In this document: positions 4,494-14,963 of the stretch, piece by piece
Layout: each line of letters begins with the position of its first letter
How positions within the stretch are numbered: position 1 is the stretch's first letter
Assembly (NCBI GenBank): GCA_963667785.2
Contig: CAXXMU010000007.1
Span: 1 to 14,963 of the forward strand
Source: Alphaproteobacteria bacterium
GTDB lineage: Bacteria; Pseudomonadota; Alphaproteobacteria; UBA828
Length of the DNA stretch: 14,963 nt
Reading direction: 5' to 3'
Notes under the pieces: generated by a model
What the model saw: only the letters and a program-made list of their open reading frames with translations
Databases searched by the model: none
Told to the model about the DNA's origin: nothing
Translations under genes and position numbers: made by a program

Positions 4494-6570
4494 CTATGCG
4501 ATCAGTTCGGCGAGTTCGCGCTTGAAGGGCACTTCGTCGCCTGCTGCGGGCGGGGCGTCGAGCTCTTCGGCGTAGCGGCGCCCGGCGTAGACGGCGTGGG
4601 CGATGGTGGCGGGTGCCAACGCGTCGCCGATGGCGTCCACGGCTTCGAGGCCGGCGTCCGCCCAGCGCTCCCGCTGCGCCGCGAGGTCGGCCGCGATCTC
4701 GTCCGCAGGCGTGCGCGCGGTGACGAGCACCACCGCGTCGGCCTCCGCCTCCTCGATCCGCCCGGTGTGGACGCATGAGGTCGCGACGAGGCCCGGCGCG
4801 ATGCGGCTCAGGTTGCGGAACGCCTCGATGCGCACGCCCTTCTCCAGCAGGCGCGCCTGGGTGAAGCGCTGCTCCATGGTGTTGCGGCTCCAGGTGGAGG
4901 CCTCGGACGCGGGCGTCGCGTAGGTGGTCTCGTAGCCGTTGTCGGCCAGCAGCTCGGCCAGCACGCTCGCCATGTAGTAGTGGTCGTCGTCCCAGACGGT
5001 GACGCGCGTGCCGTCGGGCAGGCGGCCCGCCATGAGGTCGTCGGGCGTGAGCACCTGCGCGCCGTCCTCAATGGGCGCAGGCTTGGTCCAGTGGCGGCCC
5101 ACGCCATCGCCCCGCCAGCGCGCGCCGGTGGCGATGACGACGCGGGGGCAGCCGAACTCCAGCACGGTCTCCGCGTCGAGGTGCGAATCCAGGTAGAGGG
5201 CGACGTTCGGCAGCTTGTGGAGCTGCTCCGCCCGGTAGTCGCGCACCCGCCCCCAGGCGGCGAGGCCCGGCAGGCGGCATTCCCGCGCGACGCGGCCGCC
5301 GAGCTCCGTCTCGCGCTCGGCCAGCGTCACCGCGTAGCCGCGCTTGCCGAGCGCCTGCGCCGCTTCCAGCCCGGCGGGGCCGGCGCCCACGATCAGCACG
5401 GGCTTCTCGCTCTCCTTCAGCCGGATGCGCTCGGGGTGCCAGCCGCGCCGCCATTCCTCCCCCATGGTCGGGTTCTGGGTGCAGCGGATGGGCGACATGG
5501 TGAAGTCGCCGGAGACGCAGATGTTGCAGCCGATGCACTCGCGGATGTCCTCGAGCCGCCCTTCCGCCACCTTGCGCGGCAGGAAGGGGTCGGCGATGGA
5601 GGGCCGCGCGCAGCCGATCAGGTCGACGATGCCTTTGCTCACGATGGAGACCATGCGGTCCGGCGAGGTGTAGCGGCCGACGCCGACCACCGGCTTCGTG
5701 GTGAGCGCCTTGACGCCCGCGATGAAGGGCTCCTGCCAGCCTTCCTCGCCGAAGCGCGACGAGAGGCTGTCGTTCTCCCACGAGGCGAGGCAGACGTCCC
5801 AGAGGTCCGGGATCTCGGCCACGAGGCCGATCATGTCCTCGGTCTCGGCCTTCTCCAGCCCGGCCGCGCCGCGCAGCTCGTCCACGGAGAGCCGGCAGGG
5901 CACCGCGCAGGTGTCGCCCACCGCCTCCTTCGTGTCGATCAGCAGCTCCTTGAGCAGGCGCGTGCGGTTCTCCAGCGAGCCGCCGTACTCGTCCCCGCGC
6001 TGGTTGAACTCGCGGGAGAGGAAGTGGTGCAGGATGTTGAGCGCGTGGCCGCCGTAGACGTAGATCAGGTCGAAGCCCGCGTCGCGCGCGCGGAGCGCCG
6101 CCGCCCTGTGCCAGCGGCGCAGGTTGCGGATGTCCCGCTTGTCCATGGTCCGCCCCTGCAGGGGCTCGTAGCCGAGGCTCGCGACCGGCAGGCCGGTCGG
6201 CCCCCATGGGCACCTCGCGGGAATAGAAGTTCGGGCTGTGCAGGCCGTTGTAGCAAAGCTCCAGCCCGGCGAGCGAGCCGTGCGCGTGGATGTGCTCCGC
6301 CATCCTGGCGAGCATGGGCACGTCGCGGTCGTCCCAGAGGCGAAGCTCGATGAAGGGGGTAATCTCGGCGCTCCAGTGGAACTCTACCTGCTCGGTGCAG
6401 ACCACGGCCCAGCCGCCTTCGGCCTTGACGCCCCGCATGTGGGCGAGCGCCGTCGGGTCGCGGTAGCCCATGCCGGTGCAGTGCGGCACCTGGTAGAAGC
6501 GGTTGCGGGCGGTGACGGGCCCGATCGCGACGGGCTCGAGCAGGACGTCGTAGCGGGATTCCGCGCTCAT
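4494..6570 (-). CDS. Histamine dehydrogenase (trimethylamine dehydrogenase family: 6-S-cysteinyl-FMN, 4Fe-4S), about 691 aa after correcting a +1 frameshift at 6201-6205
   Basis: The N-terminus lies in track ORF 5068..6621 from ATG 6570: NRFYQVPHC (flavin-linking Cys31), GMGYRDP, AEGGWAVVCTEQVE, PFIELRLWDD. The rest lies in ORF 4494..6146: YGGSLENR, TTKPVVGVGRYTSPD, ARPSIADPFLP, ECIGCNICVSGDFTMSPIRCTQNP (CxxCxxC-x11-C), VGAGPAGLE, DDDHYY, DEVPFKRE. These segments match my recollection of Nocardioides simplex histamine dehydrogenase much better than TMADH. Confidence 0.88.
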
Positions 6571-6590
6571 GGGATCACCCGATCGGTCAG

Positions 6591-6639
6591 AGAAAGGTGG
6601 GCCGGGCGATGCGCTCCGCAAGCAGCGCGCCGCCCGGCC
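6591..6639 (-). terminator. GC-rich stem-loop after the binding-protein gene; weak intrinsic terminator or mRNA-stabilising hairpin
   Basis: GGCCGGGCG (6600-6608) pairs with CGCCCGGCC (6631-6639); inner GCGCT (6611-6615) pairs with AGCGC (6624-6628). On the minus strand it is followed only by CACCTTTCTCT, a poor U-tract. Confidence 0.5.
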
Positions 6640-6655
6640 TGTACAGAGGTAACGG

Positions 6656-12320: not shown

Positions 12321-12340
12321 GGCTCGAGGCGCCGGGTCGG

Positions 12341-14665
12341 TCAGGCGGCATCGCGCTTCTGCAGCGCCCGGACCACGCGCTCCGGCGTGATCGGCATCTC
12401 GAAGACGCGGACGCCGATGGCGTCGGCGACGGCGTTGGCGATGGCGGGGGCCACGGCGGTCATGGCCGGCTCGCCGATGCCCTTGGCACCGAAGGGCCCG
12501 ACCCCGCTGCGGGATTCGAGGACGATGCACTCGACGTTCGGCATGTCCATCGCCGTCGGCATGAGGTACTCGCTGAAGGACGGCGTGACCAGGCGGCCTT
12601 CCTCGTAGAGCATCTCCTCGCTGAGCGCGTAGCCTTGCCCGTTCTGCGCCCCGCCCTGGATCTGGCCCTCGACGGCCGCCGGATTGATGCACTGGCCGAC
12701 GTCGTGGGCGGCGACGCTCTTCAGCACCTCGACCTCGCCGGTCTCCACGTCGACCGAGACCTCGACCGCGTGGGCGCCGTAGGCGTAGTCCGGGTGGGCC
12801 TGGCCCTGGCCGGTCTCGGGATCGAGGAAGTCGCCGAAGGGCGCGCGGAAGATGGCGAGCTCCGAGCGGTGGATGCCCTCGGCCGCGCAGATGCGCACCA
12901 GCTCGACCAGCGGCATGGACTGCTGCGGCCGGTCGGCGACGAAGACCTCGTTGAAGGCCATGTCGATCTCGTCCGGCGAGACGCCGAATTCCTGCGCCGC
13001 GCGTTCGGCGAGGCGGGCGCGAAGCCCCTCCGCCGCCTGCTTGGCGGCGTTGCCGGTCATGTAGAGCGCGCGCGTCGCCGTGGTCGTGCCGGCGAGCGGG
13101 GTGACGGCGGAATCGCTGTTGTAGATGACCACGTTGTCGAGCGTGACGCCGAGGACCTCCACCGCGATCTGGCCGAGCGCCGAAATCTGGCCTGCGCCGA
13201 TGTCGGTGACGCCGGAGCGCACCACGACGGTGCCGTCCATCTCCACGCCGACCCAGGCCTCCGACGTGTCGTGCAGGAAGGTGAGGCGGCCGTAGCTCTG
13301 CTGGTAGCAGGCGAAGCCGCGGCCGGTACGCAGCGCCCCTTGCGCCGGCGTGGGCGCGCCCAGCGCGGCCCAGGCCTGCTCCGCGCACTGCTCGGTCCAG
13401 ATCGCGCTCGGCGGCACGAAGCCGGTGGACATCGGCTCGCCGGTCTTGAGGAAGTTGCGCCGGCGCACCTCCATCCGGTCGAGGCCGAGCGCGTTCGCGA
13501 TCTCGTCCATCTGCTGCTCGTAGGCCGCGCAGGCCTGCAGCGCGCCGAAGCCGCGGAAGGCGCTCGTGTACATGTTGTTGGTGGCCACGGCCTGGGCGAA
13601 GACGTTGAGGTTGTCGACCCGGTAGGGGCCGGGGGCCGCGACCAGCGCGTAGAGGATGACGTAGGGGCTGAGGAAGACGTAGGCGCCAGCGTCGGCGATC
13701 ATCTTCACGTCGAGTGCGACGATCTTGCCGTCCTTGGTGACGCCGGTGCGGTAGGTGAGGATGAAGGGGTGGCGCTTGCCGTGGCCCACGAAGGAATCCT
13801 CGCGCGAGTATTCCAGCCGCACGGGCCGGCCGGTGTGCTTGGCCAGCAGCGCGAGGTAGACCTCGACGGTCATGTCCTCCTTGCCGCCGAAGCCGCCGCC
13901 CACCAGCGCGCCCCGCACGCGGACCTTGTTGTGGGGCACGCCGATGGCGTCGGCGATGGGCCTAAAATGCTCGATCACTTGGGTCGAGACGCGGATGTTC
14001 ACGACGTCGTTCTCGTCCACCCAGGCGAGGCCCACCTCCGGCTCGAGGAAGGCGTGCTCCTGGAACGGGGTCTTGTAGGTGTGCTCGACGATCAGGTCGG
14101 CCACGCCGAAGCCGGCCTCGGCGTCGCCCTTCCTGATCCTGCGCTCGGCGACGATGTTGTCCGAGCCGTAGACCAGCGGCGCGCCGGGCTTCAGCGCCTC
14201 CAGCGGGTCGTAGACGCCGGGGATCGGCTCAAGCTCGAATTCGATCAGCTCCGCCGCGTGATCGGCGATGTCGCGGGTCTCGGCGGCAATCAGCGCCAGC
14301 GGCTCGCCGAAGTAGCGCACCCGGTCCTTCACCAGCACCGGCTGGTCGGTATCCAGCCTCTTGCGCCCGGTCTGGCCGGGGATGTCGGTGGCGGACGTGC
14401 GGTCCGGCATGTCGGCGGCGGTGAGCACGCAGGCGACGCCCGCGAGCGCGCGCGCCGGGCCTCACGTCGAGGCGCACCAGGCGGGCGCTCGCGCTACGTC
14501 GGCGCGGAGCACGCGCATGTGCAGCATGTTCGGCATCACGTAGTCGCCGGCATAGGGCGTGCGCCCCGTGACCTTGCCCGGCGCGTCGGTGCGGGTGAGC
14601 GGCTTGCCGATCTGCCGGTACTGGACGTTGGCGAGCGCGCCCGGATCGGCGTCGGTATAGGTCAT
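12341..14665 (-). CDS. Xanthine dehydrogenase/aldehyde oxidoreductase family molybdopterin-binding large subunit, about 773 aa; interrupted near 14458-14495 by two compensating insertions
   Basis: ATG 14665 overlaps the upstream stop (ATGA): IGKPLTRTDAPGKVTGRTPYAGD, then DRVRYFGEPLA, QEHAFLEPE, STQ, GGGFGGK, AFRGFG, DIGAG, HDVG..INP..VEGQIQGG, GPFGAKGIGEP (catalytic Glu). Split across track ORFs 14462..14851 and 12341..14428. Confidence 0.93.
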
Positions 14666-14963
14666 GGTGCGCCTCCCCCGGCTTGCATGTCGCCGGCGGC
14701 GTCGGCGATGGCCTCGAAGATCTTGGTGTAGCCGGTGCAGCGGCAGAGGTTGCCGCTGAGCCCTAGGCGAATGTCGTCCTCGCTCGGCTGCGGGTTGTCG
14801 TCGATGATCGCCTTGGCCGCGATGATGATGCCCGGAATGCAGTAGCCGCACTGGGCGGCGCCGCCGTCTGCGAACGCCTTCTGCAGGGGATGCGGCGAAT
14901 CCAGGTCGCCGAGGCCCGAGACGGTGGTGACCTCCTTGCCCGCCGCCATCCAGGCCAGCGTCA
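14662..14963 (-). CDS. (2Fe-2S)-binding small subunit of the Mo-hydroxylase (CoxS/XdhC-like); 5' end outside the window
   Basis: TLAWMAAGKEVTTVSGL, HPLQKAF, AQCGYCIPG, LSGNLCRCTGY. The frame is open to the window edge. Confidence 0.95.
   Translation of the reverse strand, partial: TLAWMAAGKEVTTVSGLGDLDSPHPLQKAFADGGAAQCGYCIPGIIIAAKAIIDDNPQPSEDDIRLGLSGNLCRCTGYTKIFEAIADAAGDMQAGGGAP

Follow-up and report, generated by a model that had tools for sequence, protein, structure and literature searches.

In Gram-positive bacteria, loci for pyruvoyl-type histidine decarboxylase (HDC) hold hdcA together with hdcB, hdcP, and hisRS, and the histamine is exported by an antiporter for acid resistance or energy. 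The pyruvoyl group of HDC is made by Ser-Ser cleavage. Molybdenum (Mo) hydroxylases of the xanthine-oxidase family put oxygen from water on aldehydes and on ring carbons next to nitrogen, and in the nicotine pathway of Agrobacterium tumefaciens S33 the enzyme Pno works alongside a ring-hydroxylating Mo enzyme. Here, we describe a locus in which an HDC homolog and a Mo hydroxylase stand together with a histamine-dehydrogenase-type flavoprotein and a Pot-type importer. It lies in the window, i.e., the whole of contig CAXXMU010000007.1 (C7; 14,963 bp, 70% G+C) of a 14-contig, 4.09-Mb alphaproteobacterial assembly, and it forms part of a gene island that may import, produce, and degrade histamine.

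Going by the excerpts of two reports that cover it, bacterial histamine degradation has been worked out genetically only for the aerobic Hin route (PMC8231116, PMC6467879). For Pseudomonas putida U and P. aeruginosa, the same excerpts name the permease HinA, the aminotransferase HinC, and the aldehyde dehydrogenase HinD, and further the flavin adenine dinucleotide (FAD) monooxygenase HinF, the hydrolases HinL/H/G, and HinI (PMC8231116, PMC6467879). Pno is given as 48% identical to histamine dehydrogenase in an excerpt on the S33 pathway (PMC5500553), and the abstract on caprolactamase groups that enzyme with 5-oxoprolinases and hydantoinases as lactam hydrolases dependent on adenosine triphosphate (ATP) (PMC8453981).

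The island described here offers a testable alternative that joins a pyruvoyl HDC directly to histamine oxidation. The explanation that we favor, at a probability of about 45%, is a composite catabolic island of 14 genes in which histamine would be imported and oxidized, HdcA would feed the route, and a Mo hydroxylase, a short-chain dehydrogenase/reductase (SDR), and HyuAB would process the imidazole product, the lesion in the Hdh gene of the window probably being an artifact. One portion of this explanation is well supported by homology and gene context, namely that an amine, most likely histamine, would be imported by the Pot-like system and deaminated by Hdh, with HdcA adding histidine as a source.

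Gene layout of the window and the full island

Nine genes run in the same direction on the minus strand of the window, from 14963 down to 4494, in the order MoS (3′ part), MoL, IclR, HdcA, PotA, PotB, PotC, PotD, and Hdh:

14668..14963, minus strand: MoS, [2Fe-2S] small subunit, C-terminal 98 codons; NCBIfam xanthine-dehydrogenase-family 2Fe-2S matches at profile positions ~60-150; the 5′ part lies beyond the contig end, the MoL start is overlapped by 4 nt, and the full MoS of relatives has 165-176 aa with PF00111 and PF01799
12341..14665, minus strand: MoL, Mo-cofactor large subunit, ~774 codons with an in-frame TGA; PF01315, PF02738, and PF20256; unbroken at 774-780 aa in relatives
11559..12320, minus strand: IclR-family transcription regulator, 253 aa; PF09339 and PF01614
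10602..11546, minus strand: HdcA, homolog of the pyruvoyl-type histidine decarboxylase proenzyme, 314 aa; PF02329, TIGR00541, PDB 1hq6/1pya
9476..10564, minus strand: PotA-type ATP-binding cassette (ABC) ATPase, 362 aa; PF00005 and PF08402; TIGR01187 at 375.2 bits, passing the cut-off of 355.6
8550..9476, minus strand: PotB-like ABC permease, 308 aa; PF00528; NF007044 at 237.8 bits, under the cut-off of 348
7727..8548, minus strand: PotC-like ABC permease, 273 aa; PF00528; NF007047 at 219.7 bits, under the cut-off of 326
6656..7693, minus strand: PotD/PotF-family periplasmic solute-binding protein, 345 aa; PF13416; alternative GTG start at 7723
4494..6570, minus strand: Hdh, histamine-dehydrogenase-type iron-sulfur flavoprotein, ~691 codons, frameshifted; PF00724 in both pieces; PDB 3k30

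The eight junctions, from MoS/MoL to PotD/Hdh, measure -4, 20, 12, 37, -1, 1, 33, and 85 nt. An earlier note on this DNA had listed nine co-directional genes with these junction lengths, which were recovered exactly from the open reading frame coordinates and the sequence, and its family assignments were upheld by Pfam, NCBIfam, and PDB matches. It had also taken the nine genes for a single operon. The close co-directional layout agrees with this, but the cluster is longer than nine genes and the contig cuts the first of them: the contig end falls inside the cluster and MoS is thus partial. No terminator-like sites were detected between 4000 and 14963, against 2.8 expected from shuffled sequences, and the promoter scan gave no hit either.

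In relatives, the co-directional and tightly spaced genes upstream are HyuA (PF05378 and PF01968), HyuB (PF02538), SDR, MoM (the FAD subunit; PF00941 and PF03450), and the whole MoS. The order of the island is HyuA-HyuB-SDR-MoM-MoS-MoL-IclR-HdcA-PotA-PotB-PotC-PotD-Hdh, and the window would contain two-thirds of it, at the downstream side. An intact 14-gene copy is present in the same bin at C2:161331-177347, with a MoL of 780 codons and an Hdh of 690 codons; the gap between IclR and HdcA is 6 nt there and 12 nt in the window. Sequence identity between the window and C2:166852-177344 is 87.8%, and a locus of a Rhodospirillales metagenome-assembled genome (MAG), L001, is collinear with the window at 91.4%. 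Two genes upstream of HyuA on C2, for an amidase and an enolase-superfamily protein, were considered as extra steps of the pathway and set aside, as neither has a homolog at 12 other loci.

A global scan with one genome per species gave 178 HdcA relatives, and the best 80 loci were inspected over +/-10 kb around HdcA. The cluster was found at 8 of these 80, where HdcA is 82-95% identical and the carriers are all alphaproteobacterial or Rhodospirillales MAGs; at the 72 more distant HdcA loci (36-44% identical) neither an Hdh nor a Mo gene lies within 10 kb of HdcA. The gene order is common to all 8 related loci as far as each reaches, and to C2. Two of the loci (L004 and L005) are cut by contig ends, and L007 is an exception in having HdcA after Hdh. 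Furthermore, in a sample of 40 relatives, PF02329 is present in 15 of 20 congeneric species and in none of the 20 genomes from outside the genus, and the HdcA gene is intact in all 16 genomes that carry it. The cluster is confined to one genus of uncultured, sponge-associated Rhodospirillales. The gene combination, for which conservation in other genomes had been put forward as a check, is therefore conserved among related genomes, but it is limited to this genus and variable within it. DNA of the window or of close relatives occurs in sequencing runs of 11 studies, and the runs with an uncoded label are sponge metagenomes. Contigs of the RNA run X20 match parts of Hdh, PotB, and PotC at 90-95% identity, a match that does not show transcription.

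Predicted formation, import, and oxidation of histamine

HdcA matches PF02329 with 156.5 bits over positions 17-292 of 294 (cut-off 25). Both chains of PDB 1hq6/1pya align to it, and the break between them falls at Ser90|Ser91 (the beta chain ends at residue 81). Residues S90, S91, F92, Y71, D72, F191, and E193 are invariant in 20 diverse HdcA homologs. Y71, D72, F191, and E193 align with Tyr62, Asp63, Phe195, and Glu197 of the Lactobacillus 30a enzyme, which we take to be substrate-site residues. The naming of the gene as a pyruvoyl histidine decarboxylase in the earlier note is borne out by the family match, the Ser-Ser site, and the four aligned site residues kept, and HdcA is, by these sequence features, a member of the pyruvoyl-type HDC family that is predicted to cleave itself. 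Its subfamily is distant and is shared by many unstudied proteobacterial, Bacteroides, and other homologs. In marine Rhodobacterales and Roseibium, an HdcA homolog (42-44% identical) stands directly downstream of a gene with a TGL domain (protein-glutamine gamma-glutamyltransferase) at all 3 loci checked (L017 8742-9989, L022 8634-9989, and L035 8678-9967); that context differs from the island and possibly concerns amine transfer.

The C-terminal 550 aa of the window Hdh match PDB 3k30, a histamine dehydrogenase, with E = 4.9e-203. The intact 691-aa Hdh of L001, which is 92-97% identical to the Hdh pieces of the window, scores over its full length 892.6 bits against 3k30, 891.4 against 6de6, 711.4 against 6l6j, and 540.6 against trimethylamine dehydrogenase (TMADH). 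The designation as a histamine-dehydrogenase-type enzyme is supported by these scores, at ~890 bits for the two solved enzymes against 541 for TMADH. Hdh keeps the Cys for 6-S-cysteinyl flavin mononucleotide (Cys35 of 3k30) and the 4Fe-4S residues Cys348, 351, 354, and 366; the same Cys motifs are present in the window's own translation. The equivalents of Tyr176 and Asp270 are kept as well. For the enzyme of Nocardioides simplex, part of one report proposes Gln65, Ile74, Phe77, Glu79, Asn115, Tyr181, Trp267, and Asp358 as histamine-site residues (PMC10180351), and Hdh keeps six of these eight. The gene is intact in L001, L006, L007, C2, and the congener G407.

Between HdcA and Hdh lie the four components of a Pot-type importer. 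PotA passes its subfamily cut-off, and the best matches of the PotB-, PotC-, and PotD-like proteins are Pot models. The binding protein scores 214.9 bits against the PotD model NF007048 (cut-off 582) and 135 against the PotF model (cut-off 636), and its best PDB matches are spermidine/putrescine-binding proteins at 207 bits. The proposal of an amine ABC importer is upheld as to the importer type and its position, but the binding protein falls below the equivalog level for the ligands of PotD and PotF. Pfam detected no permease or antiporter family among the nine window genes.

The bin also holds six TMADH/Hdh-family loci at ≥40% identity in its 4.1 Mb, and five related genomes (G001-G005) have 9-13 TMADH/Hdh-family matches each at E <= 1e-50, some of them to more distant flavoproteins. 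The genus appears to be specialized in amines and cyclic amides.

Three separable parts

The distribution of its genes elsewhere suggests that the island was assembled from three separable parts, namely PotABCD-Hdh, HdcA, and HyuAB-SDR-Mo with IclR. In a class sample of 400 genomes, six other genomes have a MoL ortholog (62-76% identical), and five of them were inspected; G033 was left out because the contigs that bear its matches measure just 3-4.5 kb. The order HyuA-HyuB-SDR-MoM-MoS-MoL recurs at all five distant alphaproteobacterial loci, which belong to four families, and none of the five has HdcA, Pot, or Hdh genes. An IclR homolog (43-44% identical) adjoins the Hyu-SDR-Mo module at three of the five. 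The other neighbors of the stand-alone module are a Liv-type ABC transporter, a dimethylglycine-dehydrogenase-like gene with MttB, NUDIX, and dienelactone hydrolase. The Mo hydroxylase is not specific to the histamine genes: the six-gene module to which it belongs recurs at five of five distant loci without them.

In the same 400 genomes, an Hdh-type match was found in 36 others, and the six of highest identity not at a contig end were inspected (G089 and G378 were skipped, owing to a contig end and an in-frame TAG). PotA-PotB-PotC-PotD-Hdh occur in the same order in one of the six, which belongs to a distant family (L100; PotA-D 52-60% and Hdh 62% identical), and a second has a weaker Pot-like set. 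At L100, 397-10981, the genes run in one direction in the order DUF1028, nicotinamide adenine dinucleotide (NAD) aldehyde dehydrogenase, PotA-PotB-PotC-PotD, Hdh, and CN-hydrolase; this compact cluster of a distant alphaproteobacterium with a 2.0-Mb genome is a candidate amine or histamine utilization cluster.

HdcA lies between IclR and PotA in most loci and after Hdh, still inside the island, in L007. In the congener G407, the whole island is present in order and HdcA is gone without trace. HdcA thus looks like a movable add-on. Hdh varies too: it is not beside PotD in L002, L003, and L008, the genomes of which have a 73-74% identical Hdh copy elsewhere. In L003, the Hdh site (15458-20667) is occupied by four mobile-element genes, for an IS1595-type transposase, an integrase, an IS91-type Y2 transposase, and a DDE transposase. 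The neighbors of the unlinked 73% Hdh in the genome G003, a PutA-like gene and a transposase-associated gene, were uninformative. Two complete congeners, G420 and G421, have no MoL ortholog, Hdh, or HdcA.

Mo hydroxylase and HyuAB

The Mo hydroxylase is of the three-subunit xanthine-oxidase-family type, with a MoL of hammerhead plus two Mo-cofactor domains, a PF01799-type MoS, and the FAD subunit MoM, which is seen in relatives and lies beyond the contig end of the window. All 13 NCBIfam matches of MoL are below their cut-offs, the best being pucD at 533 against 784. Its nearest PDB entry is 4-hydroxybenzoyl-CoA reductase (359 bits); nicotinate dehydrogenase and the aldehyde oxidoreductase of D. 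gigas (289-293 bits) are also near. The best NCBIfam matches of HyuA and HyuB are CapA and CapB, at 430 and 256 bits against cut-offs of 1000.

A second three-subunit Mo hydroxylase (FAD, 2Fe-2S, and large subunits) is encoded at L104 10571-14403, equivalent to C2:180571-184403. On C2, it lies 3 kb downstream of the intact island, after an acyl-CoA-dehydrogenase-like gene.

Disrupted reading frames and the mixed bin

As assembled in the window, the genes for Hdh and MoL, two of the three key enzymes, are disrupted. Hdh is split across two frames, 6570..~6205 (N-terminal ~120 codons) and 6146..4494 (C-terminal 550 codons), by a +1 frameshift that consists of one extra base in the C5 run at 6201-6205 (G5 on the coding strand). 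The three relatives with Hdh beside PotD all have a four-base run without the extra base. Logan contigs from runs of sponge studies also leave out the base at 6201, at depths of 24.9/24.9 in X1, 24.2/28.7 in X4, and 9.8/11.8 in X8, all three being DNA-type runs. Compared with its C2 copy, the threonine-dehydratase-like gene (minus strand, 1-1389) is also frameshifted close to its 3′ end, by an extra base beside the C4 run near 53-58; contigs from all four of the runs compared lack that base. The HdcA pieces of run X1 (224 and 346 nt) show no difference from the window. We consider the Hdh frameshift to be rather likely a homopolymer consensus error and not a true pseudogene. In MoL, the in-frame TGA at 14462-14464 results from a 2-nt and a 1-nt insertion ~40 nt apart, which put 11 codons out of frame relative to seven of seven relatives.

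With L001 as the reference, the ratio of nonsynonymous to synonymous substitution rates (dN/dS) lies at 0.11-0.20 in Hdh, at 0.04-0.12 in MoL, and at 0.07-0.20 in the intact genes. The overall range of 0.04-0.20 indicates purifying selection on all genes, the broken ones included. Since Hdh and MoL fall within the range of the intact genes, any inactivation would be recent or not real. The error rate of the small contigs was tried as a means to decide on the lesions and discarded: of the genes with a full-length counterpart, 10 of 68 looked broken on small contigs, the reverse test gave 5 of 72 for the big contigs, and this noisy method is not decisive.

Completeness of the bin is 98.11% and contamination 6.6%. 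Of its nine contigs below 40 kb, eight (C3, C7, and C9-C14, the window included) are covered over 66-99% of their length by 80-90% identical matches to the five large contigs, so that the small contigs are pieces of a second congeneric genome. The bin thus mixes a main genome with parts of another species in the genus, from which the window copy of the island comes. The largest share of sampled window words in any of 24 runs was 0.51. Apparent pseudogenes in the window are not to be taken at face value, and statements on the genome of the window concern the main organism of the bin.

Absence of urocanase

The earlier note had held that the route bypasses the Hut pathway. Urocanase (PF01175) has no match in the bin, and the control search matched in 6 of 14 known genomes; one weak gene of the aromatic-lyase family is present in the bin. 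The bypass is thus in line with the missing urocanase, but the enzyme is commonly absent in the group, with or without HdcA: within the genus it was found in two of 15 species with HdcA and one of five without, and in the wider sample in 5 of 41 genomes. Urocanase as a complement to HdcA was likewise dropped as a line of evidence, as there is no usable anti-correlation, though G407, which lacks HdcA, has urocanase.

Proposed route and rival explanations

Under the favored explanation, PotABCD would take up histamine and Hdh, judging from its close family membership, would deaminate it oxidatively to imidazole acetaldehyde and ammonia. HdcA would decarboxylate intracellular histidine to histamine and feed the same route, as its conserved catalytic residues and position suggest. 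The older and widespread Mo hydroxylase-SDR-HyuAB module with IclR is proposed to take the imidazole product further, because the histamine genes sit directly behind the regulator of this module with gaps of 6-12 nt and are kept there across the genus. By chemical logic alone, the Mo enzyme might add oxygen from water to the aldehyde and/or to a nitrogen-adjacent ring carbon, so that an imidazolone or a hydantoin-type cyclic amide would form; SDR might adjust the oxidation state; and HyuAB might use ATP to open the ring toward a compound resembling carbamoyl- or formimino-aspartate. O2 would not be required as a co-substrate at any step. The Mo enzyme may be an aldehyde oxidase or an imidazole-ring hydroxylase acting before ATP-dependent ring opening, and we favor the latter. 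A complete O2-independent route from histidine or histamine to the aspartate level, with the ring attacked by the Mo hydroxylase using water oxygen and opened by ATP-dependent HyuAB, is a tentative extension that we regard as rather improbable as a whole.

Several observations weigh against this explanation. Function is inferred from sequence and gene context throughout, and all related genomes are uncultured MAGs of one genus, the shared order of which is largely by descent. HdcA scores 155 bits against TIGR00541, under the equivalog cut-off of 346.65, and Hdh differs from the N. simplex enzyme at two of the proposed histamine-site positions (Asn115 to His and Tyr181 to Leu). In the Rhizobium enzyme, the Asn115-equivalent tolerated many substitutions and the Tyr181-equivalent, Phe176, was intolerant, according to the relevant part of the report (PMC10180351). 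There is no aldehyde dehydrogenase in the island, and the sequence of MoL does not appear to separate aldehyde oxidation from ring hydroxylation. No imidazole link was detectable among the neighbors of the stand-alone Mo/Hyu module at the five loci, and with more than twenty HyuA-like and almost twenty MoS-like loci in the bin, genes of these kinds stand near many others. Three of the nine genes on the window contig look broken, and the MoL lesion, not being of the homopolymer type, could be real. The common absence of urocanase in the group says little either way.

The earlier note had drawn the route from histidine through histamine and imidazole acetaldehyde to imidazole acetate. Its first two steps agree with our results, but the Mo enzyme as an aldehyde oxidase is one possibility among others. 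A three-step route of this kind, with HdcA, Hdh, and a Mo hydroxylase acting as aldehyde oxidoreductase, would end at imidazole acetate and leave HyuAB and SDR unrelated. Aldehyde oxidation by xanthine-oxidase-family enzymes is established, the island has no NAD aldehyde dehydrogenase, and in L100 an aldehyde dehydrogenase gene lies directly upstream of PotA, roughly at the position of Mo/IclR, so that a non-orthologous replacement is conceivable. MoL also scores 289-293 bits against the D. gigas aldehyde oxidoreductase and 404 bits against a pterin-aldehyde oxidoreductase model; yet the models for xanthine dehydrogenase and 4-hydroxybenzoyl-CoA reductase give it higher scores than PaoC does (300 bits). 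MoM-MoS-MoL travels with HyuA-HyuB-SDR at five of five distant loci without Hdh, which argues that the ancestral substrate of the Mo enzyme was not imidazole acetaldehyde. The three-step route leaves this constant co-travel unexplained and would, with imidazole acetate as the end product, yield one ammonia and no carbon; we consider it unlikely. The same independence of the modules could mean that the island unites two unrelated neighbors, with Mo/Hyu/IclR degrading some other lactam or N-heterocycle while an unlinked dehydrogenase handles the aldehyde and imidazole acetate is excreted or degraded elsewhere. Both modules do occur independently elsewhere, the genus is rich in mobile elements and in paralogs of each family, and all fused loci are kin within one genus. 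However, the fusion is kept in genomes of at least 16 species with gaps of 6-46 nt and in a single orientation, and reading continues from iclR directly into hdcA or potA. In L007, HdcA has changed place without leaving the island, and the joint lack of a MoL ortholog, Hdh, and HdcA in G420 and G421 looks like gain or loss as a unit. The chance of two unrelated neighbors seems to us as low as that of the three-step route.

The amine might not be histamine at all, and Hdh, the binding protein, and the HdcA-like enzyme might act on, e.g., agmatine, putrescine, or a sponge alkaloid amine. The two replacements in Hdh, the resemblance of the binding protein to polyamine binders, and the score of HdcA under its equivalog cut-off would fit such a substrate. 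Histamine dehydrogenases also take agmatine, as part of one report states (PMC10180351), and Pno, which shares 48% identity with histamine dehydrogenase, has another amine as its substrate according to the excerpt cited above (PMC5500553). Against this, the same island carries an HDC-family gene in which all aligned imidazole- and carboxylate-site residues are kept, and the score of Hdh against true histamine dehydrogenases exceeds that against the next solved relative by 180 bits, which makes another amine quite improbable. About as improbable, or slightly more so, is a role in signaling or homeostasis, in which HdcA would make histamine and PotABCD and Hdh would remove it, tuning a host-directed signal or the cytoplasmic pH. 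Pyruvoyl HDCs of Gram-positive bacteria serve acid resistance, and the locus occurs in sponge metagenomes of 11 studies. Other sponge symbionts, and not the host, have been argued to be able to make histamine by an HDC of the pyridoxal-phosphate type, in the part of the report concerned with it (PMC10570526). However, the island has no exporter or histidine/histamine antiporter, its transporter is of the importer type, and G407 retains import and oxidation without HdcA.

If the tentative extension to a complete O2-independent route is true, the HyuAB-SDR-Mo module would be a general and undescribed "hydroxylate, then ATP-open" cassette for five-membered N-heterocycles in Alphaproteobacteria, and symbionts could use up a host-active amine and thereby modulate it. 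In sponges, histamine is a candidate signal between host and microbes, which makes the locus relevant to the chemistry of the holobiont. The island in any case points to a conserved cassette of Mo hydroxylase, SDR, and ATP-dependent lactamase of unassigned substrate.

Other features of the window

Below 4494, outside the cluster, lie a convergent carboxyltransferase gene, a family-III CoA-transferase gene, and the threonine-dehydratase-like gene. Scans for Rfam families and tRNAs in the window found none. An intergenic element of ~145 nt at 1500-1655 has some 50 copies of 70-88% identity spread through the assembly. It folds as a row of hairpins (-96.7 kcal/mol, z = -7.1 against shuffled sequences), has no Rfam match, and resembles repetitive extragenic palindromic sequences or miniature inverted-repeat transposable elements. 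A depth spike at 1498-1996 in the contigs of the runs fits a repeat.

Comparison with described systems

The earlier note knew of no described locus in which a pyruvoyl HdcA is combined with a histamine dehydrogenase and a Mo hydroxylase, and we found none in full-text searches that covered few subscription journals and no supplements. In the same literature, no description was found of the HyuAB-SDR-Mo arrangement or of the downstream enzymes of the histamine dehydrogenases used in biosensors.

Like the Hin system, the island would be a dedicated and regulated gene set with its own uptake that degrades histamine via imidazole acetaldehyde and, probably, imidazole acetate. The island would deaminate by an iron-sulfur flavoprotein dehydrogenase, whereas Hin uses an aminotransferase, and an NAD aldehyde dehydrogenase is missing from the island. 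A Mo hydroxylase and an ATP-dependent ring hydrolase would take the place of the O2-dependent imidazoleacetate monooxygenase found in Hin, uptake is by a binding-protein ABC system in the island and a permease in Hin, and the regulator is of the IclR type in the one and the LysR type in the other. A histidine decarboxylase, furthermore, is built into the island. The difference from the Hin route that the earlier note had asserted was confirmed for the cluster: the Pfam domains of a Hin-type aminotransferase, aldehyde dehydrogenase, or monooxygenase are absent from the nine window genes and five upstream genes, to which the search was confined, the rest of the genome not being searched.

With the Gram-positive pyruvoyl hdc loci, the island shares the enzyme family, the Ser-Ser self-processing site, and the aligned active-site residues. 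Its HdcA differs in sitting in an island for import and oxidation, and by bit score it is a distant member (155 against 347). Hdh shares with the characterized histamine dehydrogenases of Nocardioides simplex (3k30) and Rhizobium sp. 4-9 (6de6) a full-length match of ~890 bits, the cofactor Cys residues, the catalytic Tyr/Asp, and 6 of 8 proposed histamine-site residues, and differs in having His at Asn115 and Leu at Tyr181; the window copy is, in addition, frameshifted. HyuA and HyuB carry the same domains as CapAB, 5-oxoprolinase, and N-methylhydantoinase (PF05378 and PF01968, and PF02538), whereas their scores are far below equivalog level and their genes are fused in an operon with those for a Mo hydroxylase and SDR. 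The parts of the island are known families, and none of the Hin system, the histamine dehydrogenases, and the Gram-positive hdc loci has its composition.

The nicotine pathway of A. tumefaciens S33 also sets a Mo ring hydroxylase (Ndh) and an amine dehydrogenase of the TMADH/histamine-dehydrogenase family (Pno), both from a single catabolic locus, on an N-heterocyclic amine. It acts on another substrate and has no decarboxylase, Pot-type importer, or HyuAB. By analogy, its pairing may be taken as a precedent for a Mo ring hydroxylase working with a histamine-dehydrogenase-like enzyme.

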